Below, one piece after another: positions 3,893 through 56,170 of a stretch of 64,000 nt of DNA. Made by a program: the position numbers and the translations under genes. Below the pieces are notes generated by a model. The model saw nothing but the letters and a program-made list of their open reading frames with translations, was not told the origin of the DNA and ran no database searches. Origin of the DNA: Ramlibacter sp. 2FC (GTDB lineage Bacteria; Pseudomonadota; Gammaproteobacteria; Burkholderiales; Burkholderiaceae_C). Every line of letters begins with the position of its first letter. Within the stretch, counting starts at the first letter, position 1. The stretch spans positions 49,689 to 113,688 of the forward strand of contig CALROG020000005.1 of the NCBI GenBank assembly GCA_943369755.1, in the 5' to 3' direction.

Positions 3893-4249
3893 GTGCTTGG
3901 CGTTATTTTGTTTGCCCATGGTTCGCGTGACCCGCTGTGGCGCAAGCCCATTGAAGCGGTGGCCGAGCGCATCCGCGCCAGTGCGCCGACGGTGCCTGTG
4001 CGTTGCGCCTACCTGGAGCTCAGCACCCCTGATCTCCCCACTTCCGCTACTGATTTAATAGCGGCTGGCGCAACACTGGTGCGGGTTACACCGCTTTTTC
4101 TGGGTACCGGAAAGCATGCCCGGGAAGACTTGCCCTTGCTGATGGAGCAGCTCCGTGCCACCCACCCGGCCATACAGTTCGAACTGCAACAAGCCGTGGG
4201 AGAAGACCCGCGGCTCACCGCACTGATGGCCGAAATAGCCCTGGGCTGA
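3893..4249 (+). CDS. cbiX: Small CbiX-type sirohydrochlorin chelatase
   Basis: In-frame GTG at 3893 just after the lptG stop. ILFAHGSRDPLW and VTPLFLGTGKH are CbiX/SirB motifs. The upstream part of the ORF-track frame overlaps lptG. Confidence 0.75.
   Translation: MLGVILFAHGSRDPLWRKPIEAVAERIRASAPTVPVRCAYLELSTPDLPTSATDLIAAGATLVRVTPLFLGTGKHAREDLPLLMEQLRATHPAIQFELQQAVGEDPRLTALMAEIALG
4044..4092 (+). repeat. Family-A interspersed repeat, copy 1 (divergent, inside cbiX)
   Basis: ccGCTACtgaTTTAATAGCGGCTggCGCAacactggtGCGGGTTaCAcc matches the family consensus. It introduces TTA and ATA codons into a high-GC ORF. Confidence 0.7.
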
Positions 4250-7223: not shown

Positions 7224-10200
7224 CTACTGATTCAACTGCCCCCATACCTTGTCCAGCCGCTTGATGCTCACTGGCTGCGGGGTGCGCAGCTCCTGGGCGA
7301 AGAAGCTCACCCGCAGCTCTTCCAGCAGCCAGCGCAATTCGCTCATGCGGTCATCCACGCTGCCCTTGCGCTCGGCCACAAGACGCCAGTAGCGCTGTTC
7401 CTGCGGGCGCAGCTCGGCCAGCTTTTGGGCGTCGCGTGCCGGGTCAGTGCGCAGCTTGTCCAGCCGCAGGGTAATGGCCTTCAGGTAGCGGGCAAAGTGC
7501 TGTAGCTGGGCCCAGGGGGTGTTGGCCACAAAGCGTTTGGGCATCAGGCGTTGGAGCTGCTGGGCCACGTCGGCTGTGGCGTCAGGCTGGTTTTTGGTGT
7601 CTTTCAGCTTGCGCGTGGCACCGGCGTATTCCAGCAAAATCAGGCCCGCCAGCCGTGCCACTTCATTGGCGATCAGGGTCAGCCGCCCCCTGCCCTCGTC
7701 CACCCGGCGCTTGAAGTCCAATTCGTTCTTGGGCAACGGCTCCAGCAAAAAGGCGCGCTCCAGCGCCAGGTCGATGATCTGGTCGCGCAGCTCTTCCTGG
7801 GTCCCCAGGGGCATGAAGGCCACGGCCATTTTTTGCAGCTCGGGGATGTTCTTTTCCAGGTACTTCAGCGCGTCTTTTATCTGCAATGCAAACAGGCGGC
7901 GCAGGCCCGCGCGGTGCTTGGCGGCGGCCACCTCGGGCTCGTCAAACACCTCAATGCTCACCGCGTCTACACCGTCGATCAGCGCCGGAAAACCAATCAA
8001 GGTTTGCCCGCCTTTTCGGATTTCCATCAGCTCGGGCAGCTCACCGAAGCGCCAGGCGGTGTAGCGCTGGTCAGTCGCCTGCGCCGCGCTTGCTACACTT
8101 TTTATAGTGGCTCCCGCAGCATCTACGCGGGCTACAGCCTGATTCGTTGCTTTTTCAGGGCTGGCGGCGGTCACCGCCCCTTTCATTGCGGCCAGCGCCT
8201 GGAAGGCACCGCGCGCCTGTGCGCCCAACTCGGCCTTGAGCGCGCCCAGGTTGCGTCCGGTGCCGAGCTGGCGGCCATGCTCGTCGACCACGCGGAAGTT
8301 CATGAACAAGTGCGGTGCCAGCATGTCGAGCTTGAAGTCGGCTCGCTTGACGTCCAGGCTGGTTTCGTCGCGCACAAGTTTCAGCAACGCGTCGGTCAGG
8401 CTGCCGCCGCCCCAGGCTTGTGGCGTGCTCAAGGCCGCAGCCAGCCGCGCGGCCGACTCCGGCAGCGGCACAAAGCGCGAGCGCGGGCGCTGTGGCAGGC
8501 TTTTCAGCAACGCCTGTACCTTGTCCTTCAGGATGCCGGGCACCAGCCATTCGGCGCGCTCGTCGCTGACCTGGTTCAGCACAAACAGCGGCACTGCCAC
8601 TGTCAGGCCGTCGCGCGGGTCGCCGGGCTCATGCAGGTAGCTGGCGGCGCAGTCCACGCCGCCCATGCGAATCGTCTTGGGGAAGGCGTTGGTGGTGATG
8701 CCCGCTGCCTCATGGCGCATCAGTTCGTCGCGGGTGAGCTTGAGCAGCTCGGGCTGCTTGCGCGCCTCTTCGCGGTACCACTGCTCAAAGCCCAGGCCAC
8801 TGCAAATGTCGGGCGGCAGCTGCTGGTCGTAAAAGGCAAAGATCAGTTCGTCGTCCACCAGCACGTCTTGCCGGCGGGCCTTGTGCTCCAGCTCTTCCAC
8901 CTGGCCAATGAGCTTGTGGTTGGCCGCCAGGAAGGGCAATTTGGTTTCCCAATGGCCGGCAACGAGCGCCTCGCGGATGAAGACTTCGCGGGCGGCGTGC
9001 ATGTCCACCCGGCCAAAATTCACCCGCCGACCGCTGTACACCACCAGGCCGTAGAGCGTGGCGCGCTCCAGCGCCATCACTTCGGCGGCCTTTTTTTCCC
9101 AGTGCGGGTCCAGCAACTGTTTTTTGAGTAGATGGCCGGCTACCTGCTCGATCCATTGCGGCTCGATGTTGGCAAGGCCGCGGCCAAACAGGCGCGTGGT
9201 TTCCACCAGCTCGGCCGCCACGATCCAGCGGCCCGGCTTCTTGCTCAGGTGCGCGCCGGGGTGGCGATGAAACTTGATGCCGCGGGCCCCCAGGTATTCC
9301 GACTGCCCGGAGCCGCTTGTCCTGGGCCCGGTCGACGGGTTCGAGGCGGCTTCTTCCAGCTTGTAGCCAATATTGCCCAGCAGGCCGGCCAGCATCGACT
9401 TGTGCAGCTCTTCGTAGCTGGCGGGCAGCGTGTTCAGCCGCCACTGGTGCTCGGCCACCACGGTATGGAGCTGGGTGTGAATGTCGCGCCACTCGCGCAC
9501 CCGGCGCACGCTGACAAAGTTCTGCCGCAATAGCTGCTCGTACTGGCGGTTGCTGAGCTTGTGCGCCTGGTTGTGGCCGCCGCGCGCGTCGTTGATCCAC
9601 TTCCACAGCTTCAAATAGCCGCTGAACTCGCTTTTTTCGTCGTCAAATTTGGCATGGGCCTGGTCGGCCTGTTGCTGCGCGTCCATGGGGCGGTCGCGCA
9701 CATCCTGCACGCTCAGGGCGGCGGCAATCACCAGCACCTCGTCCAGCGCGCCACGGCTGCGCGCCTCCAGAATCATGCGCCCGACCCGTGGGTCAAGGGG
9801 CAGCTTGGCCAGCTCCCGGCCCGTGGGCGTCAGCTCGTTGGCGTCGTCCACCGCGCCCAGTTCGTTGAGCAACTGGTAGCCATCGGCAATGGCGCGGCCA
9901 GAAGGCGGCTCGATAAACGGGAACTGCGCGACATCGCCCAGGCGCAGCGACTTCATTCGCAAGATCACCCCAGCCAACGAGCTGCGCAGGATCTCCGGGT
10001 CGGTAAAGCGCGGACGGGCGTTGAAGTCTTTTTCTTCGTAAAGCCGGATGCAAATGCCATCGGCCAGGCGGCCGCAGCGGCCTGCGCGCTGGTTGGCGGC
10101 GGCCTGGCTGATCGGTTCCACCAGCAACTGCTCGACCTTGCTGCGAAAACTGTAGCGCTTAACCCGCGCCGTGCCGGCGTCGACCACAAAACGGATGCCG

Positions 10201-11222
10201 GGCACCGTGAGCGAGGTTTCGGCCACATTGGTGGCCAGCACTATGCGGCGGGCGCTGTGGCTGTCGAAAATCTGGTCTTGCTCGGCCTGGCTCAGCCGCG
10301 CAAACAGCGGCAGCACCTCGGCGTTGCGCGTCAGTGGGCTGTGCGACAGGTGGCGGCGCAGGTGGTCGGCGGCCTCGCGGATTTCGCGCTCGCCGGGCAA
10401 AAACACCAGAATGTCACCGCTGGCGTTACCTGCCCAAAGTTCGTCCACCGCGTCGGCAATGGCGTCATTCAGGTCGTGCTCGCGGCTTTCCTCGAAGGGC
10501 CGCCAGCGTTGCTCCACCGGGAACATGCGCCCCGAGACCATGATCACGGGAGCAGGCAGCCACTCGCCCCCACGCTCCCCCACTACGTGTGGGTCGCTGC
10601 CCCCCGAGGGGGCCTCGCCCGCCTTGGGGCGGCCCGGCGGCGGGCGACGCGACGCAAAATGCCGGGCAAACCGGTCGGCATCAATCGTGGCGGACGTAAC
10701 GATCACCTTCAGGTCAGGCCGGCGCGGCAGTATCTCGCGCAGGTAGCCCAGCAAAAAGTCGATGTTCAGGCTGCGCTCATGGGCCTCGTCAATGATGATG
10801 GTGTCGTAGGCCTTCAGCAGCGGGTCGGTCTGGGTCTCGGCCAGCAAAATGCCGTCGGTCATGAGCTTGACGGACGCGTCACGGCTCAGCCGGTCCTGAA
10901 AGCGCACCTTGAAACCCACCACCTCACCCAGCGGCGTGTCCAGCTCCTGCGCAATGCGTTTGGCCACGCTGCTGGCCGCAATGCGGCGCGGCTGGGTGTG
11001 GCCAATCAGCTGGCCCTTTTGGCCGGGCGCTGCATTGAGCTTGCCGCGCCCCATCGCCAGCGCAATTTTTGGCAACTGGGTGGTTTTGCCCGAGCCGGTT
11101 TCACCGCAGACGATCACCACCTGGTGCGCCGCAATGGCGGCCATGATCTCGTCGCGCTTGCCCGAGACCGGCAGTGATTCAGGGAAGGTAATGCTCAGTT
11201 GCGCCAAGGCTCGATAACTCAA
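7224..11222 (-). CDS. hrpA: ATP-dependent RNA helicase HrpA (DEAH box)
   Basis: 1332 aa with GETGSGKTTQ, DEAHERS and TSAT motifs and a long HrpA C-terminal region. The start is TTG at 11222. It carries two repeat-derived in-frame insertions (see findings). Confidence 0.95.
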   Translation of the reverse strand: MSYRALAQLSITFPESLPVSGKRDEIMAAIAAHQVVIVCGETGSGKTTQLPKIALAMGRGKLNAAPGQKGQLIGHTQPRRIAASSVAKRIAQELDTPLGEVVGFKVRFQDRLSRDASVKLMTDGILLAETQTDPLLKAYDTIIIDEAHERSLNIDFLLGYLREILPRRPDLKVIVTSATIDADRFARHFASRRPPPGRPKAGEAPSGGSDPHVVGERGGEWLPAPVIMVSGRMFPVEQRWRPFEESREHDLNDAIADAVDELWAGNASGDILVFLPGEREIREAADHLRRHLSHSPLTRNAEVLPLFARLSQAEQDQIFDSHSARRIVLATNVAETSLTVPGIRFVVDAGTARVKRYSFRSKVEQLLVEPISQAAANQRAGRCGRLADGICIRLYEEKDFNARPRFTDPEILRSSLAGVILRMKSLRLGDVAQFPFIEPPSGRAIADGYQLLNELGAVDDANELTPTGRELAKLPLDPRVGRMILEARSRGALDEVLVIAAALSVQDVRDRPMDAQQQADQAHAKFDDEKSEFSGYLKLWKWINDARGGHNQAHKLSNRQYEQLLRQNFVSVRRVREWRDIHTQLHTVVAEHQWRLNTLPASYEELHKSMLAGLLGNIGYKLEEAASNPSTGPRTSGSGQSEYLGARGIKFHRHPGAHLSKKPGRWIVAAELVETTRLFGRGLANIEPQWIEQVAGHLLKKQLLDPHWEKKAAEVMALERATLYGLVVYSGRRVNFGRVDMHAAREVFIREALVAGHWETKLPFLAANHKLIGQVEELEHKARRQDVLVDDELIFAFYDQQLPPDICSGLGFEQWYREEARKQPELLKLTRDELMRHEAAGITTNAFPKTIRMGGVDCAASYLHEPGDPRDGLTVAVPLFVLNQVSDERAEWLVPGILKDKVQALLKSLPQRPRSRFVPLPESAARLAAALSTPQAWGGGSLTDALLKLVRDETSLDVKRADFKLDMLAPHLFMNFRVVDEHGRQLGTGRNLGALKAELGAQARGAFQALAAMKGAVTAASPEKATNQAVARVDAAGATIKSVASAAQATDQRYTAWRFGELPELMEIRKGGQTLIGFPALIDGVDAVSIEVFDEPEVAAAKHRAGLRRLFALQIKDALKYLEKNIPELQKMAVAFMPLGTQEELRDQIIDLALERAFLLEPLPKNELDFKRRVDEGRGRLTLIANEVARLAGLILLEYAGATRKLKDTKNQPDATADVAQQLQRLMPKRFVANTPWAQLQHFARYLKAITLRLDKLRTDPARDAQKLAELRPQEQRYWRLVAERKGSVDDRMSELRWLLEELRVSFFAQELRTPQPVSIKRLDKVWGQLNQ
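8090..8141 (+). repeat. Family-A interspersed repeat, copy 2 (inside hrpA, antisense to the gene)
   Basis: ttGCTACacTTTTTATAGTGGCTccCGCAgcatctacGCGGGCTaCAGCCtg. hrpA translates it as AVARVDAAGATIKSVASAAQ. Confidence 0.9.
10572..10646 (+). repeat. Family-B GC-rich repeat, copy 1 (inside hrpA helicase core)
   Basis: Shares the identical blocks TCGCTGCCCCCCGAGGGGGC and GGGGCGGCCCGGCGGCG with the copy at 46060-46130. hrpA reads it as RRPPPGRPKAGEAPSGGSDPHVVGERGGEW. Confidence 0.85.
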
Positions 11223-14578: not shown

Positions 14579-15090
14579 CTTCGCAGCGGCCGCAGCAGAC
14601 GCACCAGCAGCGCAGCAAACACCACGCCGAAAATCGCAAACCACACAAACGACCAGTTGGCGATCGACAGGCCCAGAAAGGTCCAGTCGATCTTGGTGCA
14701 GTCGCCACTGCCCTTGAAGATCATCGGCACGGCGCGTTTGAGCGGGAAGGTTTCGATCATCCCGTAGAAGTCGCGCCCGCAGGACACGATCTCGGGCGGG
14801 TACCACTGCAACCAGCTCTGGCGCGCAGCCACAAAGGCGCCGAACCCGGCAAACAGCAAGGCCAGCGCGCCGCCGCCGATTTGCAAGCCTTTTCGGCCTG
14901 TAGCCCCCGCCAATGCTGCGCAGAGTGCTACCAGAATAAGAGCGTACCGCTGCACGATGCACATCGGGCAGGGCTCCAGCCCCACCCCGTGCTGCAAATA
15001 CAGGCCAAAGGCCAGCATGGCCACGCAGACCGCGGCCACCGCGCCAAATACCCGGCGCGGGTAGGCGTCAAACCAGTTCAGAGAAGTCAA
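14575..15090 (-). CDS. dsbB: Disulfide bond formation protein B
   Basis: 171 aa, 4 TM, first-loop CPMC motif ([12 protein letters not shown]) and a second periplasmic Cys pair. Confidence 0.85.
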
Positions 15091-15515: not shown

Positions 15516-16664
15516 GTGTCGCAAGGCCCGCCCGGGCCTTGCGTCGTTGTGGGCGGCGGCATTGCCGGTGCTGCGGTGGCAGCCAGCCTGGCGCGGCGCG
15601 GCTGGCAGGTGCAGGTGCTGGACGCAGCGGCCGAGCCGGCCAGCGGTGCCTCGGCCTTGCCGGTGGGTTTGTTTGCGCCACATGTCTCGCACGACGATGC
15701 CATCCTCTCTCGCCTGACGCGTGCTGGCGTGCAGGCCACACTGGCGCAGGCGCGCGCACTGCTGCGCGAGGGGCAGGACTGGCAGCTCACCGGCGCGCTG
15801 GAGCACGGTATCAAGCCTGCGGCGCGCGAGCGGCGGCAACGGCCAGCCAGCGCAGCGCAACTTCAGGGCTCGCGGCCAGCCACGGCCAGTGAATTGCAGC
15901 GCGCCGGCCTGCCGGCGGATGCGCCTGCACTGTGGCACGCGCAGGCCGGCTGGCTCAAGCCCGCAACCCTGGTCAACGCGCTGCTGGCGCAGCCGGGCAT
16001 TGAGTGGCGCGGCAACACCGCCGTGGGTGGGCTGGTGCGCGACGCCAGCGCCTGGCAGGTGCTGGACGCCCAAGGCGCGCTGCTGGCCCGGGCCGCGCTG
16101 GTGGTAGTGGCGGCCGGGCCCGCCAGCAATGCCCTGCTGGGCGACTGCTTGCCGCTGCAACCGCTGCGCGGCCAGATTGCGTGGGCGCCGCATGCACCGG
16201 GCTTGGAGGGGCTGCCGCCCTTCCCCGTGAATGGCCACGGCAGCCTGGTGGCCGGCATTCCGCACGGCGGCACCCCAGCCTGGTTCATGGGCTCGACCTT
16301 CGAGCGCGACAGCCTGGACACCACAGTGCGTGAGGCCGACCACACGGCCAACCTGGCACGCCTGCAAACGCTGCTGCCAGCCGCAGCCAGCGCGTTGGAG
16401 GGCGAATTTGCCGAAGGCCGGGTGCAGGGCTGGGCCGGTGTACGCGCCACCCTGCCCGACCGGCTGCCCGCCGTGGGGGCACTGGACCCGCTGAATGCCC
16501 CCGGGCTACAGGCCTGCACCGGCATGGGCGCGCGCGGCCTGACGCTGGCGGTGCTGTGCGGCGAGCTGCTGGCGGCCTGGCTGCATGGCGAGCCATTGCC
16601 ACTGGAGGCGGCGCTGGCCCGGGCATTGGCCGCCAGCCGCTTTGGGCCTTCAAATACAAGGTAA
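15516..16664 (+). CDS. FAD-dependent oxidoreductase resembling the stand-alone C-terminal (oxidase) domain of MnmC
   Basis: GTG start, dinucleotide motif VVVGGGIAGAAVAASLARRGWQVQVLD, about 380 aa DAO-type fold. The MnmC-type assignment is from memory, not a search. Confidence 0.55.
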   Translation: MSQGPPGPCVVVGGGIAGAAVAASLARRGWQVQVLDAAAEPASGASALPVGLFAPHVSHDDAILSRLTRAGVQATLAQARALLREGQDWQLTGALEHGIKPAARERRQRPASAAQLQGSRPATASELQRAGLPADAPALWHAQAGWLKPATLVNALLAQPGIEWRGNTAVGGLVRDASAWQVLDAQGALLARAALVVVAAGPASNALLGDCLPLQPLRGQIAWAPHAPGLEGLPPFPVNGHGSLVAGIPHGGTPAWFMGSTFERDSLDTTVREADHTANLARLQTLLPAAASALEGEFAEGRVQGWAGVRATLPDRLPAVGALDPLNAPGLQACTGMGARGLTLAVLCGELLAAWLHGEPLPLEAALARALAASRFGPSNTR

Positions 16665-16667
16665 ATC

Positions 16668-16717
16668 GGCGCTAGCCCGCGTGTGTATTGCGGTAGCCAC
16701 TATATTTTTTGTAGCAA
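16668..16717 (-). repeat. Family-A interspersed repeat, copy 3 (reverse orientation, between convergent genes)
   Basis: The reverse complement reads ttGCTACaaAAAATATAGTGGCTacCGCAatacacacGCGGGCTaGCGCC. Its TAG is the stop codon of the 16700-17446 gene. Confidence 0.9.
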
Positions 16718-17446
16718 ACTTTGTAGCTGCGCGGGGTCAAAGGGTTTGGCCAGACAGGCCTTTGCGCCGGCCTGGCGGGCGCGCAGCCCCGCCAACAATG
16801 TGCCACCCGCGGTGGTAAGCCAAACCGTGCCCACCTCGGGTCGAACCGCGCGCAACTCGCGCAGCAACTGCCAGCCGTCGCGGTCCGGCAACGCCAGGTC
16901 CAGCAGCACCAGGCTGTAGGGCTGGGCCGTGACCAGCGCCAGGGCGTCGGCGGCGGTGGCCGCTTCATCCATAAACACCAGGCCGGCCAGCGCCAGCCGC
17001 GCCCGCAGGTAGAGGCACTCGTCGCGACTGGTGTTGACCACCAGAGCCCGACGCCCGGGTGCGTCCAGCTCTGGCGGCTGGGTGTCGGGGCCGGCGTCAA
17101 AGCCAAGGTCAAAGTCCAGCTCCGGCGGCGGGCCAAACAAGCTGTCCATGGCCTGCACCACATTGGGCCAGTGCATTGGCCGGTCGAAGCTGCGCCAGGC
17201 ACGCGGCGACGGATGGCTGCCAACCCAGATCAGCTTGATGCTGTCGTCAAGGCCCTGGGTTTCCAGTTCCATCACGGCCTGGTAGCTGTCGCCATCAACC
17301 AGCGCGAGCGCGGGCGACCGGGGGGCGTCAGCGGCCCAGAGCTGGTAGTGAATGGCTTGGTCGGCCGACAGGCGAAAGACACTGTTGAGCGCGTGCCGCT
17401 CAACATCGGAAAAGCCCATCACCTTAACGAAAATCGGTTCAGCCAT
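16700..17446 (-). CDS. Response regulator with a C-terminal receiver domain and an N-terminal receiver-like (degenerate) domain, no recognisable output domain
   Basis: The C-terminal half has receiver landmarks: LVLLDLALPDRDG (phospho-Asp), VWLTT, CLAKPF. The N-terminal ~120 aa is only receiver-like (LALVDGDS). Confidence 0.7.
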   Translation of the reverse strand: MAEPIFVKVMGFSDVERHALNSVFRLSADQAIHYQLWAADAPRSPALALVDGDSYQAVMELETQGLDDSIKLIWVGSHPSPRAWRSFDRPMHWPNVVQAMDSLFGPPPELDFDLGFDAGPDTQPPELDAPGRRALVVNTSRDECLYLRARLALAGLVFMDEAATAADALALVTAQPYSLVLLDLALPDRDGWQLLRELRAVRPEVGTVWLTTAGGTLLAGLRARQAGAKACLAKPFDPAQLQSLLQKI

Positions 17447-20320: not shown

Positions 20321-20372
20321 CTTACTATGAAATTGATAGTGGCTCACGCAGATTCCACGCGGGCTAGCGGCC
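20321..20372 (+). repeat. Family-A interspersed repeat, copy 4 (spans the start of the DUF934 gene)
   Basis: cttACtatgaaaTTGATAGTGGCTcaCGCAgattccacGCGGGCTaGCGGCC. It contains the ATG at 20327 and encodes MKLIVAHADSTRASG. Confidence 0.85.
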
Positions 20373-20707
20373 AAAACGTTCTTGTTCTTGGCAACGATGT
20401 CGACCCCCGCAGCGTGGCGCTGACAGGGGTGGACTGCATTGAACTGAGCTTCCCCGCCTTCACCGATGGCCGGGCCTTCAGCCAGGCTTTTTTGCTGCGC
20501 CGCCGCCTGGGCTTTACAGGCGACATTTGCGCCACCGGCGACGTGTTGGTGGACCAGCTGGCGCAGATGCAACGCAGCGGCTTTTCCAGCGCGGTACTGC
20601 GGGCTGACCAGGACGCTACGACCGGCGAGCGCCTGCTGCGGCACTACCCGGCCTTCTACCAGGGCGATGCGGTCACACCCGCGCCTGTTTTTGCCAGGGC
20701 GGCTTGA
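20327..20707 (+). CDS. DUF934-family protein (sulfite-reductase-associated), apparently N-terminally short
   Basis: FPAFTDGRAFSQAFLLRRRLGFTGDICATGDVLVDQLAQMQRSGFSS matches the DUF934 core as I recall it. The position between cysI and cysH is the usual one. Confidence 0.75.
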   Translation: MKLIVAHADSTRASGQNVLVLGNDVDPRSVALTGVDCIELSFPAFTDGRAFSQAFLLRRRLGFTGDICATGDVLVDQLAQMQRSGFSSAVLRADQDATTGERLLRHYPAFYQGDAVTPAPVFARAA

Positions 20708-27691: not shown

Positions 27692-27737
27692 CATTCCGCG
27701 CCCGCTTTACAATACGCGCTGCACTCGCAAGGGTGCA

Positions 27738-27835
27738 ACTCGCTAGGGGTGTTGCCGCGCTGCAAATTTGCAGTGGGGCGACTGAGAAAGTCCCTTTGAA
27801 CCTGATTGAGGTAATCCTCGCGCAGGGAAGCAAGC
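27738..27835 (+). promoter_or_regulatory. TPP (thiamine pyrophosphate) riboswitch aptamer
   Basis: CTAGGGGTG...(P3 hairpin CTGCAAATTTGCAG)...ACTGAGAAAGTCCCTTTGAACCTGATTGAGGTAATCCTCGCGCAGGGAAGC matches all conserved THI-box blocks (GGGGUG, CUGAGA, CCUUUGAACCUGAU, GCG.AGGGAA). Confidence 0.9.
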
Positions 27836-27841
27836 TCCAAG

Positions 27842-27870
27842 GTGGTGCCCTCTTCTCCCGGGCACTTTTC
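27842..27870 (+). terminator. Intrinsic terminator forming the riboswitch expression platform
   Basis: GGTGGTGCCCtcttctccCGGGCACTTTTCCACC lies directly after the aptamer and 45 nt before the receptor start. Confidence 0.6.
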
Positions 27871-27914: not shown

Positions 27915-30086
27915 ATGGCAAAACAACCGCCTTTTCATCCCGTTTTCAAGCCAAACTGGCCTCTAGCCCGCATGGGTACTGCGCTAGCCACTACTATTTT
28001 TATAGCAAGCCTGGCGCAAGCCCAGCAAGGCGCAACGCTAAAACCCGTCACCGTCAATGACCGCAGCGCCGCCCCGCAAGCCGACCTGACCGGCTTTGGC
28101 GACCTGCCGCTCAAGGATGTGCCGATCTCGGCCACGGTGGTCGGCCGCGACCAGTTGCAGCAAAGCGGCGCCCGCCGCCTGGCGGACCTGACCCAGTTTG
28201 ACGCGTCCGTCACCGACGCCTACAACGCCCCCGGCTACTGGGACTACCTGAGCATCCGTGGCTTCACGCTGGACAACCGTTTCAACTACCGCCGTGAGGG
28301 CCTGCCCATCAGCGCCGAGACCTCGATCCCGCTGGACAACAAAGAGCGCATTGAAATCCTCAAGGGCACCAGCGGCATCCAGGCCGGCACCAGTGCGCCT
28401 GGGGGGCTGGTGAACTATGTTGTCAAACGCCCCACGCAACAGGATTTGCGTGAAGCAAGGCTTGAATACACAAGCCGCGCAAGCCTGCTGACGGCGCTGG
28501 ACCTGGGCGGGCGCCTGGGCCCAGACAAAGCCTTCGGCTACCGCCTCAATCTGGCCACCGAGCGCTTGCGCCCCACCACGCGTTCGCTGGACGGGGAACG
28601 GCAGCTGCTGGCGCTGGCCGCAGACTGGCGCGTCAACAAAGACACAGTGCTGGAAGCCGAGCTTGAATGGAGCCACAAACAGCAACCCAGCCAGGCCGCC
28701 TTCAGCCTCCTGGGCAGCCGCCTTCCCGCCGCCGTAGACCCACGCCTGAACCTGAACAACCAGGCCTGGTCAAAAGGCTCGGTGTTTGACGCGCTGACCG
28801 GTACGCTTCGGTTCGAGCAAGCCCTGAACAGCGAGTGGCGCTGGAGCGCCCAAATGGGCGGCCAGAAGCTCAAGACTGACGACCGGTTGGCCTACGCCTT
28901 TGGCTGCAGTGCCGAGGGCAACTTTGACCGCTATTGCAGCGACGGCAGCTTCGATTTTTATGACTTTCGCTCGGAAAACGAGCGCCGCAACCAGCAGGCC
29001 GCCGGGCTCAGCCTCAAGGGGAAGCTCAGCACCGGCGGCGTGGCGCATGATCTGTCTTTTGGGCTCATCAACAGCCGCGTGCGCAACCGCTTTGACCGCC
29101 AGGCCTTCAACTATGTGGGCAGCGGCAACGTGCAGGGCACGGCCCTGGTGCCAGCCGACCCGGCGCTGACCGACGAGAACACCCAGCGCGATGAAAAGTC
29201 GCTGGAGTTCTCGGTACAAGACGCGGTCCGCTGGAGCCCGCGCCTTACCACCTGGCTGGGCCTGCGCCACACCCAGCTTGAGCGCCGCAGTGTGCGCACC
29301 GATGGCTCGCGCGCCACCGGCTACCGCGACGCCCTGACCACGCCCTGGCTGGCCGCCAGCTACCAGTTCAGCCCGGCGCTGATGGGCTACGCCAGCTACG
29401 GCGAAGGCGTGGAGTCGCAGGTGGTGCCCAACCGCACCGCGCAGTACAGCAACGCCGGTGTCGGCCTGCCGGCGCTGAAGTCCAGGCAATGGGAGCTGGG
29501 GGTGCGCGGCGGCGACGCGGCCTTTAGCTGGCAGGCGGCCTGGTTCCAGATTGAGCGGCCCATGAGCAACCTGGACGCCTGTGGGCGCTTGGGGCTGTCG
29601 CCGTGCACCGGCCGCTATGACGGTGACGCGCAGCACCGGGGCCTGGAAGCCAGCGCCCAGTGGACCAGCGGCCCCTGGCGCGCAGGCGGCGGCGTGACGC
29701 TGCTGGACGCCAAGCGCCGTGGCAGCACCGCCGAGCCCGCCGTCAACGGCAAACGCCCCACCAACGTGCCCAGCAACGTAGTGCGTGCCAATGCCGCCTG
29801 GAAGGTGCCCGGCGTTGCCGGGCTGGAACTGCAAGGCCAGCTATCGCACGAAGGACGGCGCGCAGTCACCCCCGATGAGGCCATCATGCTGCCGGCCTGG
29901 ACCCGCCTGGACGCCGCGCTGCGCTACGACACCAGGTGGAATGGTGCAAAAACAAGCTGGACGCTGGGCATCGAGAACCTGGCCAACAGGCGCTACTGGA
30001 AAGAAGCACCCTACCAGTTTGGCCATGTCTACCTGTACCCCGGTGCCACGCGCACGTTTCGCCTGTCGTTCACGGCTGCACTGTGA
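27915..30086 (+). CDS. TonB-dependent outer-membrane receptor
   Basis: 723 aa with a signal peptide ending ASLAQA-QQ, plug motifs (ERIEILKGTSGIQAGTSAPGGLVNYVVKRP) and a beta-barrel C-terminus. Controlled by the TPP riboswitch upstream. Confidence 0.9.
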   Translation: MAKQPPFHPVFKPNWPLARMGTALATTIFIASLAQAQQGATLKPVTVNDRSAAPQADLTGFGDLPLKDVPISATVVGRDQLQQSGARRLADLTQFDASVTDAYNAPGYWDYLSIRGFTLDNRFNYRREGLPISAETSIPLDNKERIEILKGTSGIQAGTSAPGGLVNYVVKRPTQQDLREARLEYTSRASLLTALDLGGRLGPDKAFGYRLNLATERLRPTTRSLDGERQLLALAADWRVNKDTVLEAELEWSHKQQPSQAAFSLLGSRLPAAVDPRLNLNNQAWSKGSVFDALTGTLRFEQALNSEWRWSAQMGGQKLKTDDRLAYAFGCSAEGNFDRYCSDGSFDFYDFRSENERRNQQAAGLSLKGKLSTGGVAHDLSFGLINSRVRNRFDRQAFNYVGSGNVQGTALVPADPALTDENTQRDEKSLEFSVQDAVRWSPRLTTWLGLRHTQLERRSVRTDGSRATGYRDALTTPWLAASYQFSPALMGYASYGEGVESQVVPNRTAQYSNAGVGLPALKSRQWELGVRGGDAAFSWQAAWFQIERPMSNLDACGRLGLSPCTGRYDGDAQHRGLEASAQWTSGPWRAGGGVTLLDAKRRGSTAEPAVNGKRPTNVPSNVVRANAAWKVPGVAGLELQGQLSHEGRRAVTPDEAIMLPAWTRLDAALRYDTRWNGAKTSWTLGIENLANRRYWKEAPYQFGHVYLYPGATRTFRLSFTAAL
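27963..28008 (-). repeat. Family-A interspersed repeat, copy 5 (reverse orientation, inside the receptor signal-peptide region)
   Basis: The reverse complement reads ttGCTAtaaAAATAGTAGTGGCTagCGCAgtacccatGCGGGCTaG. Translated as LARMGTALATTIFIAS. Confidence 0.75.
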
Positions 30087-37943: not shown

Positions 37944-38082
37944 AAAGCGTGACTCCTCTTTTCAGTGCCCTCCCCCGCGCACGGTAATGCGCGGGCTTGG
38001 CAGCCAATAGATTCGTCCAAAGTTAGTTGACTGAATTAGGACAGAGCTTGCAGCCATGCCGCTGCGGTCTGCCCGGAAAATT

Positions 38083-43838: not shown

Positions 43839-45500
43839 TCATAAAAATTTGCTGGTTATAGGATAGCGCCAATCTTTGCCAAAGCTGCGGTGGCTGACCC
43901 TGATGCCCACTGGTGCCTGGCGGCGCTTGTACTCATTGATCTTGATCAGCCGGGTCACCCGGTCAACGTCAGCGCGGGCGTAGCCGGCAGCAACGATCTC
44001 GTCGGCCGACTGGTCGTTTTCCATGTAGCGCTCCAAAATCGCGTCCAGCACCTCGTAGGGCGGCAGGCTGTCCTGGTCTTTCTGGTCGGGCCGCAGCTCG
44101 GCGCTGGGTGGGCGGGTGATGATGCGCTCGGGAATCGGGTTGGCACCCGTACCGTAGGGGTCGTTGGCATTGCGCCAGTGCGCCAGTCTGAATACCGTGG
44201 TCTTGAGCACGTCCTTGATCACCGCGAAGCCACCGGCCATGTCGCCATACAGCGTGCAGTAACCAGTGGCCATCTCACTCTTGTTGCCGGTGGTCAGCAC
44301 GATGCTGCCGAACTTGTTGCTCAGGGCCATCAGCAACGTGCCCCGGATGCGGGCCTGAATGTTCTCTTCGGTCGTGTCTTCGGCCCGGCCTGCGAACTCG
44401 CTGGCCAGCGCCGCCTTGAAGGCCTCGAACTGCGGCACGATTGAAATTTCGTCGTAGCGCACGCCCAGGCGCCGGGCCATCTCGCGCGCGTCGATCCAGG
44501 AAATGTCGGCGGTGTAGGGCGAAGGCATCATCACTGTACGCACCTTGTCGCGGCCCAGGGCGTCAACCGCGATGGCCAGCACCAGGGCTGAATCAATCCC
44601 GCCCGACAGGCCCAGAATCGCACCGGGAAAGCCGTTCTTGCCGATGTAGTCACGCACGCCCAGCACCAGCGCGTCCCACAAATCCGCCTCGACGCTGCGT
44701 TCGGGCACCGAATTCGCTATGATTTTTATAGCGGCTCCCGAACGCTCCACGCGGGCTGGAAACATGTTTTCTTCAAAACTCGGGGCCCGCCCGGCCAGAC
44801 TGGCGTCGGCGTTCACGGCGAATGAGTGCCCCTCAAAAACCACCTCGTCCTGGCCACCCACCAGGTGCGCATAAACCAGCGGCAGGCCGCAGGCGCGTAC
44901 CCGCTCAAGCATAGTCTGTTCGCGCTCGCTGCCCTTGCCGACGTGAAACGGCGAGGCATTGATCACCGCCAGCAGCTCGGCACCGGCGTCCTTGGCGGCC
45001 TGGGCGGGGGCCTGGAACCACGCGTCTTCACAGATCAGCAGGCCCACCTTGATGCCTTGCACCTCGAACACACAAGTGCCGGTGCCTGGCGTGAAGTAGC
45101 GGCGCTCGTCAAACACCTGGTAGTTGGGCAGCTCACGTTTGGCGTAACTGGCGATCACCGCGCCCTCGCGCAGCACACTGGCCGCGTTGTGGCGCTGCGT
45201 AATGGCCACACTGCGGGTGCGTTGGTCGCCGCCGGTCGGGTGGCCCACCACCACCGTCATGCCCTTTAACCCGGCCAATTCGCGGGCCACCCGCTTCACG
45301 GCATCATCACAGGCGGCAATGAAGGCCGGGCGAAGGAACAGGTCTTCCGCCGCATAGCCGCAAATCGAGAGTTCGGGTGTCAGCAACAGCCGGGCACCGT
45401 CCGCGTAAGCTGCATGGGCAGCCGCCACGATCTTGCTGGCGTTGCCCGGCATGTCGCCCACGACGAAATTGAGTTGGGCGACGCAAAGTTTGAGAGTCAT
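43839..45500 (-). CDS. nadE: Glutamine-dependent NAD(+) synthetase
   Basis: N-terminal CN-hydrolase domain (LICEDAW) and C-terminal PP-loop LGLSGGIDSALV. Carries a family-A repeat in the inter-domain region. Confidence 0.95.
   Translation of the reverse strand: MTLKLCVAQLNFVVGDMPGNASKIVAAAHAAYADGARLLLTPELSICGYAAEDLFLRPAFIAACDDAVKRVARELAGLKGMTVVVGHPTGGDQRTRSVAITQRHNAASVLREGAVIASYAKRELPNYQVFDERRYFTPGTGTCVFEVQGIKVGLLICEDAWFQAPAQAAKDAGAELLAVINASPFHVGKGSEREQTMLERVRACGLPLVYAHLVGGQDEVVFEGHSFAVNADASLAGRAPSFEENMFPARVERSGAAIKIIANSVPERSVEADLWDALVLGVRDYIGKNGFPGAILGLSGGIDSALVLAIAVDALGRDKVRTVMMPSPYTADISWIDAREMARRLGVRYDEISIVPQFEAFKAALASEFAGRAEDTTEENIQARIRGTLLMALSNKFGSIVLTTGNKSEMATGYCTLYGDMAGGFAVIKDVLKTTVFRLAHWRNANDPYGTGANPIPERIITRPPSAELRPDQKDQDSLPPYEVLDAILERYMENDQSADEIVAAGYARADVDRVTRLIKINEYKRRQAPVGIRVSHRSFGKDWRYPITSKFL
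44713..44760 (+). repeat. Family-A interspersed repeat, copy 6 (inside nadE, antisense to the gene)
   Basis: ttCGCTAtgaTTTTTATAGCGGCTccCGAAcgctccacGCGGGCTgGA. nadE reads it as FPARVERSGAAIKIIANS. Confidence 0.85.
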
Positions 45501-45507
45501 ACCAGCA

Positions 45508-46791
45508 GTGCAAAACAGTTCAAACGATTATGTCATCCGGGTTTTGGCTTCGCCGCTTGAGGTGAATGCTGCCGACTGGAACGCCCTGCACGCGCTGCAA
45601 GCCCACGCCAGCCCCTTCATGCGCCACGAATACCTGGCCGCCTTGCACGAAAGCGGCTGCGCCACACCCGCCACCGGCTGGACGCCGCGCTTTGTCACAC
45701 TGTGGCGCGCCGACCAATTGCAGGCCGCCTGTGCGCTCTACCTGAAGGCGCATTCGTACGGCGAGTACGTGTTTGACTGGGCCTGGGCCAACGCCTATGA
45801 GCAGCATGGCCTGGCCTACTACCCCAAGGCCACAGTGGCGGCACCGTTCACTCCGGTGCCTGGCGCGCGGCTGCTGGCGCGTGACGCGCCCGCCCGTTCC
45901 GCACTGGTGCAAGCGCTGGTGAGCTGGTGCAGCGCCCAGGGTCTGTCGTCGCTACACCTGCTGTTTGCGGCACCAGACGATGTGGCCGCCTGTGAGAAAG
46001 CAGGGCTCATGCTGCGACACACAGTCCAGTTCCACTGGAAGAACATGGCCCCCGCGCTCGGCACTGGCGTGTCCTCGCTGCCCCCCGAGGGGGCGAGTTT
46101 CGCCGTGGGGCGGCCCGGCGGCGAAACCGGCTATCCCGATTTCGACGCCTTCCTCGCCACCTTGAGCCAGGACAAGCGCAAAAAAATCCGCCAGGAGCGG
46201 CGCAAGGTGGCCGACGCGGGTGTGTGCTTTCGACACGCGCAGGGTCGCGACATCACACCAGCAGACTGGGACTTTTTTTACCGCTGCTACGAACGCACCT
46301 ACCTGGAGCATGGCAATGCGCCCTACCTGACGCGCGACTTCTTCCGGCGCATGGCCGACACCATGCCCGAGGCCTGGCTGCTTTTCACGGCGGAGCGCGC
46401 GGGCCAGCCAGTTGCTACAAGTTTAATAGCGCTTCACGCAACACCCATGCGCTCTGGTGGCCAATTTGGCTTGAAAGCGCAGGAAAAAGTAGCCTACGGC
46501 CGCTACTGGGGTGCACTGGAGCGGGTAGACTGCCTGCACTTTGAGGCCTGCTACTACCAGCCATTGCAGTGGTGCATTGCGCAGGGCTACGACCGCTTTG
46601 AAGGCGGCGCCCAGGGCGAACACAAGATGGCCCGCGCACTCATGCCGGTGCGCACCACCAGTGCCCACTGGCTGGCTCACCCCGCCTTTGCCGACGCCGT
46701 GCAGCGCTTTTTGGAGCGTGAAGGCCAGGGCATCGAAAACTATGTCGAGCACCTGGCGCAGCGCAGCCCGTTCAGGCACGAACCCGCTTGA
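45508..46791 (+). CDS. GNAT/FemAB-like protein of unknown function (COG3146-like)
   Basis: GTG 45508 lies just beyond the divergent nadE start. WNALH...SPFMRHEYLAALHESGCA...GWTPRF and C-terminal FEGGAQGEHKMARA are as in this family (recollection). Contains one family-A and one family-B repeat in frame. Confidence 0.7.
   Translation: MQNSSNDYVIRVLASPLEVNAADWNALHALQAHASPFMRHEYLAALHESGCATPATGWTPRFVTLWRADQLQAACALYLKAHSYGEYVFDWAWANAYEQHGLAYYPKATVAAPFTPVPGARLLARDAPARSALVQALVSWCSAQGLSSLHLLFAAPDDVAACEKAGLMLRHTVQFHWKNMAPALGTGVSSLPPEGASFAVGRPGGETGYPDFDAFLATLSQDKRKKIRQERRKVADAGVCFRHAQGRDITPADWDFFYRCYERTYLEHGNAPYLTRDFFRRMADTMPEAWLLFTAERAGQPVATSLIALHATPMRSGGQFGLKAQEKVAYGRYWGALERVDCLHFEACYYQPLQWCIAQGYDRFEGGAQGEHKMARALMPVRTTSAHWLAHPAFADAVQRFLEREGQGIENYVEHLAQRSPFRHEPA
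46060..46130 (+). repeat. Family-B GC-rich repeat, copy 2 (in frame in the 45508-46791 ORF)
   Basis: ggcactggcgtgtccTCGCTGCCCCCCGAGGGGGCgagtttcgccgtGGGGCGGCCCGGCGGCGaaaccgg. Translated as GTGVSSLPPEGASFAVGRPGGETG. Confidence 0.85.
46412..46462 (+). repeat. Family-A interspersed repeat, copy 7 (divergent, in frame in the 45508-46791 ORF)
   Basis: ttGCTACaagTTTAATAGCGCTTcaCGCAacacccatGCGCTCTgGTGGCC. Translated as VATSLIALHATPMRSGG. Confidence 0.75.
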
Positions 46792-48876: not shown

Positions 48877-49103
48877 GGTTTTTTCTGCGGGAAACTAAGG
48901 AGAAGGGAATATCAGGATTAACCCTGATTTTACTTTCGCCAGCCTTGCTTTGCGTGTGATGGCCACGGAAACGTCACGGTTTGCGCTTATATTCCGCCCG
49001 TTGGCCAATCGTCTCCGCCAGTTGGGAGCGACGAGGAAGCAACGCAGCGGGGGTACCGCTTGCGTGGCACCCCCTCCAAGCGAAACAACGTAGGAGATTA
49101 AAC

Positions 49104-51200
49104 ATGACAGGCAACTCAGCGCTGATTCTGGCGCTCGTCTGCGGGCTTATTGCTGTTGCATACGGCATTTGGGCACGCGGCTGGATTCTTTCCCAGGACG
49201 CAGGCAACCCCCGCATGCAAGAAATTGCGGCGGCCATTCAGGCCGGCGCAGCCGCCTACCTGGCACGGCAATACAAAACCATTGCCATCGTTGGCGTGGT
49301 GTTGGCCGTGCTGATCGGGCTGTTCCTTGACGTCAAGACATCGATCGGCTTTGTGATTGGCGCGGTGCTCTCGGGTGCTTGCGGCTTCATTGGCATGAAC
49401 GTCTCGGTACGTGCCAACGTACGCACCGCGCAGGCCGCCACCCGCGGCATTGGCCCGGCACTGGATGTGGCCTTTCGCGGCGGTGCCATCACCGGCATGC
49501 TGGTGGTGGGACTGGGCCTTTTGGGCGTTGCCGGTTTTTACTGGTACCTCACGGCCGGTGGCATTCCGGCCGACGGCAAGGCTTTTGCCACGCTGCTCAA
49601 CCCCTTGATCGGCTTTGCCTTCGGTTCGTCGCTGATCTCGATCTTTGCCCGCCTGGGCGGCGGCATCTTCACCAAGGGTGCTGACGTCGGCGCTGACCTG
49701 GTGGGCAAGGTGGAGGCCGGCATCCCCGAAGACGACCCGCGCAACCCCGCGGTGATCGCCGACAACGTGGGCGACAACGTGGGCGACTGCGCCGGTATGG
49801 CCGCCGACCTGTTTGAAACCTACGCCGTGACGCTGATCGCCACCATGGTGCTGGGCGCGTTGCTTGTGGCTGCGGCCCCGGTCAATGCGGTGCTGTACCC
49901 GCTGGCGCTGGGCGCGGTGTCCATCGTTGCGTCCATCATCGGTTGCTTCTTCGTCAAGGCCTCGCCCGGCATGAAGAACGTGATGCCGGCCCTGTACAAG
50001 GGCCTGGCGGTGGCCGGTGTGCTGTCGCTGATCGCGTTTTACTTCGTGACCCAAAGCCTGTTCCCGGCCCCGATCAAGCTCGAAGGTGGCGTGATTCTGT
50101 CCAGCACCAACCTGTTTGGTGCCTGCTTTGTCGGCCTGGCCCTGACCGCAGCACTGGTGTGGATCACCGAGTTCTATACCGGCACCCAGTACTCACCGGT
50201 GCGCCACATCGCACAAGCCTCCACCACGGGCCATGGCACCAACATCATTGCGGGCCTGGGCGTGTCGATGCGCTCCACCGCCTGGCCGGTGGTGTTTGTG
50301 TGTATCGCGATCATGGCCTCGTTCAAGCTGGCTGGCCTGTACGGCATTGCCATCGCCGCCACTTCCATGCTGAGCATGGCCGGTATCGTGGTGGCACTTG
50401 ACGCCTACGGCCCCATCACCGACAACGCCGGTGGCATTGCTGAAATGGCCGAACTGCCCGCCAGCGTGCGCGACGTGACCGACCCGCTGGACGCAGTGGG
50501 TAACACCACCAAGGCCGTCACCAAAGGCTACGCCATTGGCTCGGCGGGCCTGGCCGCACTGGTGCTGTTTGCCGACTACACCCACAAGCTGGAAACTTAC
50601 GGCAAGGCCATCAGCTTTGACCTGAGCGACCCGATGGTGATCGTGGGCCTGTTCATTGGCGGCTTGATCCCCTACCTGTTCGGTGCCATGGCCATGGAGG
50701 CCGTGGGCCGCGCCGCCGGTGCCGTGGTGGTTGAAGTGCGCCGCCAGTTCCGCGAGATCAAGGGCATCATGGAAGGCACGGCCAAGCCTGAATACGGCAA
50801 GGCCGTAGACATGCTGACCACAGCCGCCATCAAGGAAATGATCGTGCCGTCGCTGCTGCCGGTGGTGGTGCCAATTGTTGTGGGCCTGGTACTTGGCCCC
50901 AAGGCGCTGGGTGGTTTGCTGATGGGCACCATCGTCACCGGCCTGTTCGTGGCCATTTCGATGTGTACCGGTGGCGGTGCCTGGGACAACGCCAAGAAGC
51001 TGATTGAAGACGACTTTGTCGACAAAGACGGCGTGACCCACAAAAAGGGCGGCGAAACCCACAAGGCCGCCGTCACCGGCGACACCGTGGGCGACCCCTA
51101 CAAGGACACTGCCGGCCCGGCCATCAACCCGCTGATCAAGATCATCAACATTGTGGCGCTGCTGATCGTGCCGCTGGTGGTGAAGTTCCACGGCGGCTGA
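49104..51200 (+). CDS. hppA: Membrane H(+)-translocating pyrophosphatase, K(+)-independent type
   Basis: ATG 49104 after [47 protein letters not shown] and GNTTKA (Lys form). Confidence 0.95.
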
Positions 51201-51218: not shown

Positions 51219-51250
51219 CAAAAGGCCCGCAGTTGCGGGCCTTTTGCTTT
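51219..51250. terminator. Bidirectional-looking rho-independent terminator between hppA and the convergent acyl-CoA ligase gene
   Basis: caAAAGGCCCGCagttGCGGGCCTTTTgctttg. Confidence 0.85.
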
Positions 51251-51300
51251 GCTACACTTTTTATAGTGGCTAACGCAGCCCCTATGCGGGCTGCAGCCTG
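51249..51300 (+). repeat. Family-A interspersed repeat, copy 8 (intergenic)
   Basis: ttGCTACacTTTTTATAGTGGCTaaCGCAgcccctatGCGGGCTgCAGCCtg. Confidence 0.9.
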
Positions 51301-51302
51301 TT

Positions 51303-55413: not shown

Positions 55414-55511
55414 GAAAAGCAGTGCAGACTTGCAGTTGTGTCGGCCACCCGACAGACTGGCCGGGCGCACAGCCCGAGAATTCTGTGCACGCGATCAAAA
55501 AGGAGCCGCCC

Positions 55512-56042
55512 GTGAAAACCCTGACCGACCAGCTAGCGAAGTACGCAGCCTATCACCGTGACCCGCGCAACATTGCCAGCCACTTCATCGGAATACCGAT
55601 GATCGTGCTGGCTGTGGCAGTACTGTTGGCACGCCCAGCCTGGGGCAGCATGGGTGGCGTTGCCCTGACCCCGGCATTGCTGCTGACTGCCGTCACGGTG
55701 CTGTATTACCTGCGGCTTGACCTGCGCCTGGGCCTGTTGATGGGCCTGCTGATGGCGCTGAACCTGTACGCAGCGCAATGGTTCGCCGTGCAGTCCACCA
55801 GTTTCTGGCTGGGCTCAGGAGTCGGCCTGTTTGTGGCCGGCTGGTTGATCCAGTTCATCGGCCACTACTACGAGGGCAAGAAGCCCGCGTTTGTGGACGA
55901 CATCATGGGCTTGATCATCGGCCCGCTGTTTGTGGTGGCCGAAGCAGTGTTTGCGCTTGGCCTGCGCGGGCCCTTGTTGCGTGAAATTGAGGCCCGCGTT
56001 GGCCCGGTGCGCAAACGTGACATCAGCGCCAGTGCCACGTAA
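55512..56042 (+). CDS. DUF962 (Mpo1/YGL010w-like) membrane protein
   Basis: GTG 55512, 6 nt after AGGAG. YAAYHRDPRNIASHFIGIP...FIGHYYEGKKPAFVDD matches the family core. Confidence 0.75.
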   Translation: MKTLTDQLAKYAAYHRDPRNIASHFIGIPMIVLAVAVLLARPAWGSMGGVALTPALLLTAVTVLYYLRLDLRLGLLMGLLMALNLYAAQWFAVQSTSFWLGSGVGLFVAGWLIQFIGHYYEGKKPAFVDDIMGLIIGPLFVVAEAVFALGLRGPLLREIEARVGPVRKRDISASAT

Positions 56043-56068
56043 CTAATTTCACTCAATTCGAACCTGGT

Positions 56069-56120
56069 TTGCTATTATTTTTATAGTGGCTCACGCATTC
56101 TGTATGCGGGCTGCAGCCTG
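56069..56120 (+). repeat. Family-A interspersed repeat, copy 9 (intergenic)
   Basis: ttGCTAttaTTTTTATAGTGGCTcaCGCAttctgtatGCGGGCTgCAGCCtg. Confidence 0.9.
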
Positions 56121-56170
56121 AATTGGCTTGAACAAAGGCGGTGCGGCGGCTTTGGAGCAAAATCGCTGGC

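Follow-up and report, generated by a model that had tools for sequence, protein, structure and literature searches.

A dispersed repeat family in the window

The 64,000-nucleotide stretch of the Ramlibacter sp. 2FC genome considered here (contig CALROG020000005.1, positions 49,689 to 113,688; hereinafter the window) carries nine copies of a short, AT-rich repeat, termed family A, which lie within conserved genes, at gene edges and between genes. A plain repeat search places the segment at 8090-8141 in a set of seven direct and two inverted copies, and an nhmmer profile seeded with the nine window copies and iterated over the whole genome (G000; 3.65 Mb, 60 contigs, 63% G+C) recovered 421 hits (420 without duplicates). 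Membership of the family is significant for every one of the nine copies in the window (38-60 bits, E 4.9e-16 to 2.5e-9), in keeping with the initial annotation of this sequence, which had listed them under family A. They are located as follows:

4045-4099 (+): copy in cbiX, read in the sense frame as SATDLIAAGATLVRVTPLF; E 2.5e-9
8090-8146 (+): copy in hrpA (gene 7224-11222, -), read antisense as AVARVDAAGATIKSVAS; E 4.8e-15
16663-16718 (-): copy at the 3' end of the open reading frame (ORF) 16700-17446 (-); E 1.6e-11
20322-20377 (+): copy at the start of a DUF934 gene (ORF 20327-20707); E 1.8e-13
27946-28009 (-): copy in a TonB-dependent receptor gene (27915-30086, +), read antisense; E 2.2e-15
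44713-44775 (+): copy in nadE (gene 43839-45500, -), read antisense as NMFPARVERSGAAIKIIANS; E 7e-11
46411-46474 (+): copy in a FemAB_like (PF04339) gene (45433-46791, +), read in the sense frame as VATSLIALHATPMRSGGQFGL; E 3.8e-10
51249-51305 (+): intergenic copy between the convergent ORFs 48981-51200 (+) and 51303-52982 (-); E 3e-14
56068-56131 (+): intergenic copy between the co-oriented ORFs 55422-56042 and 56141-57604, the best-scoring in the window; E 4.9e-16

The element is about 60 bases long (~55-66 nt), with the consensus ATTTGCTATAAATTTTATAGTGGCTCACGCAGTATCCATGCGGGCTACAGCCCGATTTGGCTTTAA in G000, and comprises a conserved AT-rich 5' box (TTGCTAT-N7-ATAG(T/C)GGCT) and a conserved 3' box (GCGGGCT-ACAGCC-(N)-ATTT) on either side of a variable middle. 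[quoted passage not shown] In the window the copies are single, at least 1.6 kb apart and never in tandem. No Rfam family matches any copy at the gathering threshold, RNAalifold recovers only 4 pairs with no compensatory change, and a hand-drawn two-hairpin structure shows covariation no higher than shuffled sequences. Among the variants of family A in three genomes compared below, only that of G020, in which ATAG heads a palindrome of ~17 bp, has a strong fold (-17.1 kcal/mol, z -4.35), whereas those of G000 and G005 do not surpass shuffled sequences in this respect (z approximately -1.1 to -1.2). RNA or DNA structure was rejected as the conserved feature on these grounds: the conserved parts of family A are its sequence boxes, not a hairpin.

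Copies that encode parts of proteins

The initial annotation had placed six copies inside long ORFs that they left uninterrupted. The peptides quoted for them are reproduced, and a comparison of each gene with 25-40 relatives, one per genus, refines the picture: four window copies are internal to Pfam-supported genes (cbiX, hrpA, nadE and the FemAB-like gene), while those in the DUF934 and TonB-dependent receptor genes form N-termini and one further copy gives a stop codon.

The copy in cbiX sits within the Pfam CbiX domain, which is aligned over 1-105/106 with no extra length, and its peptide aligns gap-free, residue for residue, with 29 orthologues that use GC-rich codons where the copy reads GCT ACT GAT TTA ATA GCG GCT ...; the region read through the copy includes SATDLIAAGATLVR. 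In an AlphaFold2 model based on 35 orthologues (pLDDT 91.5, pTM 0.85), the residues of the copy fall on helix 56-65 and, after a turn, on strand 70-75, which leads up to the invariant P75-x-F77; going by this model, it encodes core structure and not a loop. Element-like codons are also seen in cbiX of the Polaromonas loci L332, L344 and L346. In a Polaromonas metagenome-assembled genome (locus L383, 1501-1881), the element-like stretch at the same site is ~10 residues longer (TTEVIASHAVYQRANGISEALTIRIVPMF) and may represent an intermediate between insertion and the length-neutral state. The relatives of this CbiX come from Ramlibacter, Rhodoferax, Acidovorax, Polaromonas and others, at no more than 70% identity, which identifies the family as Comamonadaceae; in a search among 185,579 species genomes for relatives close enough to give a before-and-after view of the replacement, the best match was only 70% identical.

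In nadE, the copy lies between the CN_hydrolase (7-253) and NAD_synthase (275-529) domains defined by Pfam and encodes 21 inter-domain residues; most of the native segment has been replaced, since the orthologue segment is only 3-5 residues shorter. Weak copies are present at this site in G002 and G022. The copy in the FemAB-like gene yields ATSLIAL from its 5' half (GCTACAAGTTTAATAGCG), which corresponds to a strand kept in all orthologues ((I/V)AxSL(I/V)A(L/I) / PIAxSLIAL), and the 3' half alone adds length, namely 13-16 residues. This addition is missing from more distant members of the family, and its distribution tracks relatedness. Judged by these alignments, the element has replaced native sequence in cbiX and partly in nadE and the FemAB-like gene. 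The hrpA copy is found inside DUF3418 (Pfam), where it occupies a linker (peptide AVARVDAAGATIK) that distant orders lack and that is hypervariable among members of the family; recognisable copies occupy the same place in the same orientation in at least five other genera. The surface loops and linkers envisaged as a possible destination of such copies are thus an apt description for hrpA and nadE, but not for the core helix and strand of CbiX or the 5' half of the FemAB-like copy.

At the edges of genes, a shortened DUF934 protein (20327-20707) takes its ATG and initial ~17 residues (MKLIVAHADSTRASGQN) from the copy; its Pfam DUF934 match spans residues 23-122. The short N-terminus, MK(L/I)I(A/V)..., is common to 6 genera, and farther relatives have a longer, unrelated one. 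The copy in the TonB-dependent receptor makes up residues 14-32, upstream of the plug domain (starting at residue 66, Pfam), and encodes the hydrophobic core of the signal peptide (LARMGTALATTIFIASLAQA), which aligns with orthologue signal peptides of similar length. The copy at 16663-16718, already singled out in the initial annotation as being read in another frame and running into the element's own TAG, gives ORF 16700-17446, in this third frame, its final five codons together with its TAG stop (...PAQLQSLLQKI*). Apart from the repeat, a thiamine pyrophosphate (TPP) riboswitch (58.8 bits; 27735-27845, +) stands directly upstream of the TonB-dependent receptor gene, which is therefore probably thiamine-regulated.

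In-gene copies of this kind might instead be native coding sequence whose likeness to the repeat is due to chance or convergence, a conclusion that the initial annotation would have drawn from orthologues with homologous residues encoded by unrelated DNA. Such residues do occur throughout the cbiX copy, and they are also present in part of nadE and, in the FemAB-like gene, over the 5' half of the copy. A native or convergent origin nevertheless does not follow from them, because the E-values and codons are those of element DNA: all nine window copies have genome-wide E-values of 2.5e-9 or less; the adjacent TTA-ATA codons (used at 0.44 and 1.28 per 1000 codons) are found only in this lineage and Polaromonas, with the other aligned orthologues being GC-rich; and the G+C content at third codon positions (GC3) is 0.44 in the copies as against at least 0.76 in long ORFs. 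Native origin is accordingly scarcely credible.

Reading frames and codons across the genome

Copies were called in frame genome-wide by a home-made flank test, as opposed to curated gene models, in which both 150-nt flanks had to score best in the same strand and phase with no stop between them, using a codon log-odds table trained on long ORFs of high GC3. By this test, 79 of 421 copies (~19%) are in frame in G000 and 51 of 370 in G020. The proposal that the in-gene copies always use the same two frames holds within the window, where three are read in one sense frame and three in one antisense frame; across the genome these two frames account for 59 of the 79 in-frame copies (75%), and all six frames are used (sense-2, 32; antisense-1, 27; sense-0, 9; antisense-0, 7; sense-1, 2; antisense-2, 2).

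It had further been supposed that random insertion followed by survival wherever the frame happens to be open would generate this pattern, and this explanation fails. Among 284 full-length non-genic copies, antisense-2 is open in 79% and sense-1 in 52%, yet each has just 2 in-frame uses; conversely, sense-0 and antisense-0 are open in merely 3% and 1% of these copies (closed in 97-99%), yet together they are used 16 times, giving chi2 = 219 against the open-frame expectation. That open frames are barely used and mostly closed ones are used repeatedly indicates that the filter is the encoded peptide and not the stop codons. Peptides from the favoured frames are rich in Ala/Ile/Val/Thr (AIxxIVAHAxxMRAT and AVARxDxAxATIKxIA), whereas those from the avoided open frames are rich in Cys/Tyr/His/Ser/Lys (CYKFNSGSRNLHAGYS and GSSPHAASASHYQKYS).

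The enrichment of rare AT-rich codons reported for the window extends to the 79 in-frame copies: ATA reaches 31.7 per 1000 codons as against 1.28 in long ORFs (25-fold), TTA 6.7 as against 0.44 (15-fold) and AAA 32.4 as against 9.85, with GC3 at 0.44 in the copies and at least 0.76 in the training ORFs.

Sites shared between genera and genome-specific variants

For the comparison of variants, the sequence used to build profiles amounted to 400 kb for G005 and 1.6 Mb for G020. In its 3' part, the consensus differs between the three genomes:

G000: TAGTGGCTCaCGCAgtatccATGCGGGCTACAGCC
G005: TAGCTGCTTGCGCAttttcGGAAAGGGCTAGAGGCC
G020: TAGCTGCTcGCGCTTGccggaCAAGCGCTAGCGGC

In G000, only 18 sites are recovered with the model from G020; in G020, the model from G000 recovers 96 of 575 raw hits. 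As the palindromic G020 variant yields profile hits on both strands of one site, duplicates were removed, leaving 370 unique copies in 1.6 Mb, i.e., one per 4.3 kb or about twice the density in G000 (loci L202-L221 and L243-L302). The flanks of these copies were anchored in G000 by tblastx, with success on both sides for 125. At 28 of these 125 syntenic sites, G000 has a copy at the projected position (16/42 in-frame sites and 12/79 others), as compared with 3/191 in a shifted control (~1.6%; run before duplicate removal). Orientation agrees in 28/28 cases. At all 28 sites, the copy in each genome is matched better by its own genome's model than by the foreign one, in both directions (48.7 vs 7.5 bits for the G000 copies; 32.7 vs 10.9 for those of G020), and shared copies fit the consensus of their own genome as well as unshared copies do.

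The same holds for the genes of the window: the copies in hrpA, the FemAB-like gene and the DUF934 gene of G000, G005 and G020 each score ~20 bits higher with their own model. The hrpA copy has 56.4 bits with its own model vs 16.5 and <4 with foreign ones, and the FemAB-like copy of G000 has 40.7 vs 18.4 and <5, with own-model scores of 43.5 in G005 and 38.7 in G020; at the DUF934 site of G005, the scores are 38.2 with the own model and 22.7 with that of G000. Element DNA is present at the FemAB-like site in the same codon register in 8 genera, along with a degenerate ninth, and each genus carries the hairpin variant of its own genome. In the genomes poor in family A (G006, G009), the orthologous in-gene copies are degenerate. 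Identity between orthologous pairs (0.687) barely exceeds that between random cross-genome pairs (0.666; p = 0.02), as against 0.72 for pairs within a genome. The in-gene copies are thus old and retained across genera, not recent insertions, and the presence of the own-genome variant at shared sites reads as the signature of concerted evolution, for which conversion is the most likely process, going by these sequence comparisons. Some sites differ: ~10 in-frame G020 copies face clean gaps of 11-17 residues in G000 and ~11 face G000 sequence of the same length, often with a faint element-like peptide, which indicates that insertion or deletion and decay also occur.

These gaps are also what would be expected of a purely selfish mobile element undergoing turnover, in which the current variant of each genome inserted independently, shared sites are merely permissive hot spots and no conversion takes place. 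Besides the clean element-length indels between genera, this explanation could accommodate the genome-specific variants, the absence or degeneration of family A in many relatives, and the hrpA site, a hypervariable linker that would tolerate repeated hits. Independent insertion at hot spots is, however, contradicted by the FemAB-like element, whose codon register over a conserved strand is identical across eight genera, and by the complete agreement in orientation at the 28 shared sites. Against it stand, moreover, the sharing of 16/42 in-frame sites and, between genes, of 12/79 sites vs ~1.6% in the control, the DUF934 N-terminus common to 6 genera, and the distribution of the FemAB-like insertion, which follows relatedness. 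Turnover by itself is thus quite improbable as the explanation.

Genomic placement and distribution

Among 86 intergenic copies, 26 lie between convergent genes, 59 between tandem genes and 1 between divergent genes, compared with a baseline of 350 convergent, 1512 tandem and 342 divergent gene pairs (divergent pairs being ~15% of the baseline). Intergenic copies are thus mostly at the 3' ends of genes, with convergent and co-oriented pairs favoured and divergent promoter regions avoided. The orientation of the copies displays no clear replication polarity relative to GC skew (82/115 vs 107/106) and no bias relative to co-oriented flanking genes (31 vs 28).

Relatives were scanned with a covariance model (R1) built from 70 G000 copies. 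Family A is abundant in 8 of 25 genomes of the same family, G000 counted, with few or no copies in the others; the same scan covered 16 further families of the order Burkholderiales and found it in none. It is a Comamonadaceae-specific dispersed repeat resembling both repetitive extragenic palindromic (REP) elements and the Rickettsia palindromic elements (RPEs).

How copies might enter genes and stay current

The account we favour, and hold as a whole to be slightly better than an even bet, joins insertion, a filter of peptide tolerance and the rewriting of retained copies to the variant of their genome. Copies would enter genes as element-length insertions and would survive only where the translated peptide is tolerated, mainly in the two frames with Ala/Ile/Val/Thr-rich products. 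Such places would include linkers, as in HrpA and NadE, and N-termini or signal peptides, as in the DUF934 protein and the TonB-dependent receptor. After trimming of length, the element peptide could stand in for a similar native helix or strand, as might have happened in CbiX and the FemAB-like protein; the sense-frame product, (I/V)A(T/I)xx(I/L)(V/A)A, is similar to helix or strand motifs of the form AxxL(I/V)A. Retained copies would then be rewritten repeatedly to the current family variant by gene conversion or copy replacement from other members, possibly mediated by a protein that recognises the two boxes, such that the DNA sequence, and not the peptide, would be what is maintained.

Several points weigh against this account. 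No conversion tract, donor or enzyme was observed, and conversion is deduced from the pattern only. Being short, and with a similarity of only ~72% inside a genome, the repeats make a poor substrate for RecA-type ectopic conversion. Synonymous sites between the genera are probably saturated, so that the near-random identity of orthologous copies cannot separate conversion from change in place under selection. The in-frame calls derive from the codon-usage flank test described above in place of curated gene models, and the comparison with G020 covered 37% of that genome (1.6 Mb). Finally, the sole gene in G000 resembling a REP-associated tyrosine transposase (RAYT), a Y1_Tnp gene at C22:10850-11527 (locus L303), is not flanked by family A, the nearest copy lying ~4 kb away in G000 and 2.3 and 5 kb away in G020; all but one of the 24 genomes of the family have it (23 of 24), those without family A included.

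This Y1_Tnp gene was considered as the agent of family A and rejected, being single-copy, present without the element, devoid of flanking family-A copies and equipped with inverted repeats of its own (CTGACCCCAATT / AATTGGGGTCAG, flanking it in both G000 and G020).

Alternatively, family A may be a recognition signal under maintenance, for instance a site akin to uptake signals or one that organises the chromosome, which some trans-acting system would read and which would be written over genes via codon choice. Such a signal would be kept by selection or recombination-based drive, and its copies would change in place as the specificity of the reader shifts. An analogy might be struck with the DNA uptake sequences (DUS) of Neisseriaceae and the uptake signal sequences (USS) of Pasteurellaceae: these have a short core of 9-12 nt, occur about once per kb and direct preferential uptake in transformation; they are frequent in genes, use preferred frames, cause no length change and keep their sites between species, with dialects that change in step. 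Family A is likewise found in genes and in preferred frames, with retained sites and species-specific variants that change in step. However, it is five times longer, is spaced at one per 4-9 kb and displays element-length indels.

The conservation of sequence boxes in place of a hairpin, the lack of covariation, the retention of sites across genera with variants changing in step, the absence of any length change in cbiX and the exclusion of copies from divergent promoter regions would all fit a signal of this type. Nonetheless, a motif of at least 50 nt is implausible as a product of point mutation at a site, and the element-length presence or absence, together with the cbiX that is ~10 residues longer, points to insertion followed by trimming. 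Furthermore, some ten or more positions separate the G000 variant from that of G020, so that parallel change at hundreds of sites would be needed; there is no polarity with respect to GC skew, and no reader protein was identified. We therefore regard the recognition signal as unlikely, if still a serious contender. By the analogy with uptake sequences, family A could, with the same reservation, belong mainly not to a jumping parasite but to some dedicated system that writes and updates a genome-wide DNA signal at fixed sites, including the codons of core housekeeping genes. Were this the case, the protein sequences of the family would be partly shaped by the need to carry the signal, and family A would constitute a 60-nt analogue of the uptake-sequence dialects with a templated copy-replacement mechanism.

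Turning back to insertion and rewriting, if conversion or, alternatively, active maintenance holds true, non-coding repeat families would overwrite and steer protein evolution across a bacterial family. Family A, whose orthologous sites number in the hundreds and for which many genomes are at hand, would then also be a tractable object for measurements of ectopic conversion between short repeats.

Relationship to known repeats

The initial annotation likened the behaviour of the copies to that of RPEs, and the likeness stands: family A is a dispersed family of short repeats, many of them in frame inside conserved genes that are left unbroken, encoding peptide segments, including N-termini, and bringing in rare AT-rich codons. 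The resemblance is drawn from behaviour, and there are several differences, in that family A belongs to a different phylum-level lineage, is shorter (55-66 nt), replaces native core segments in several cases (cbiX, the FemAB-like gene) instead of adding surface loops, and has copies that are common to several genera yet match the variant of each genome. With the REP, bacterial interspersed mosaic element (BIME) and REPIN (REP doublet) sequences (Di Nocera et al. 2013, PMC3733652; PMC8049555), family A shares its abundance, its location mostly at gene 3' ends with convergent or co-oriented neighbours, the presence of some copies in frame within genes and long-term persistence of the family; the (A/G)TAG tetranucleotide that heads the palindrome of the G020 variant is reminiscent of the GTAG or CGTC that heads REPs. 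It differs from REPs in its additional conserved AT-rich 5' box and in the weakness of the palindrome in G000 and G005, from REPINs in that the window copies are singletons and not inverted doublets, and from REPIN-RAYT systems in that the sole RAYT-like gene has its own inverted repeats and no flanking family-A copies.

The family had been thought undescribed in this group, which is correct only in part. Intragenic, in-frame RPEs (Ogata et al. 2000) and REPs are known in other taxa (PMC10969869, PMC3733652), and a 2017 motif survey (PMC5217627) lists two uncharacterised motif pairs in Comamonadaceae: ATAGCT(N)22CAAAAG, with 125 copies in Polaromonas naphthalenivorans CJ2, of which 18 lie in genes and 34 between convergent genes, and GCTTAT(N)5AAGCG, with 114 copies (44 convergent and 4 divergent) in Acidovorax ebreus. 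Based on the common ATAGCT box and the GCGCTT..AAGCGC hairpin of the G020-type variant, these are very probably family A. The survey presents them as potentially novel motifs, with no element boundaries, in-frame analysis, orthology or variant comparison, and in the literature no account was found of where family A begins and ends, how it behaves in frame, how it is retained across genera or how its shared copies match the variant of their genome.

In-frame repeats are usually seen as tolerated junk in surface loops. Family A instead encodes a core helix and strand of CbiX, a conserved strand of the FemAB-like protein, a signal peptide, a start codon and a stop codon. The more interesting content accordingly lies in the replacement of native segments and the concerted evolution of orthologous in-gene copies, whose mechanism we infer. 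At a practical level, such copies entail errors in the annotation of start codons and gene boundaries, as well as patches of rare codons (ATA, TTA) in essential genes.

Other repeats and RNA elements in the window

A doubtful tenth match to family A, weak in score (E 1.5e-3, 19.6 bits), is present at 14889-14943 (-), in frame in a minus-strand ORF by the flank test; it encodes a 23-residue hydrophobic peptide and may be a decayed copy or a chance match.

A second, GC-rich repeat, family B (TCGCTGCCCCCCGAGGGGGC...GGGGCGGCCCGGCGGCG), occurs at 10594-10642 in hrpA and at 46075-46123 in the FemAB-like gene, in frame in both and encoding SLPPEGA..GRPGG. It forms 2-3 tandem units in the FemAB-like gene of G005 and G020, and most relatives lack it. 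The BRE repeat (Hot et al. 2011, PMC3110155) is 75-91 bp long, 69% GC and often tandem, is known from Bordetella as well, has 29 copies in Polaromonas sp. JS666, and includes some copies wholly within coding sequences. Its occurrence in Comamonadaceae and partly in coding sequence is a point in common with family A. Identity of the two was rejected, family A being AT-rich, 55-66 nt long, never tandem in the window and not found outside one family; by description, BRE fits the two GC-rich, elsewhere tandem, family-B repeats.

An ilvH RNA leader element (Rfam RF02993, 84.8 bits) is located at 37950-38017 (-).

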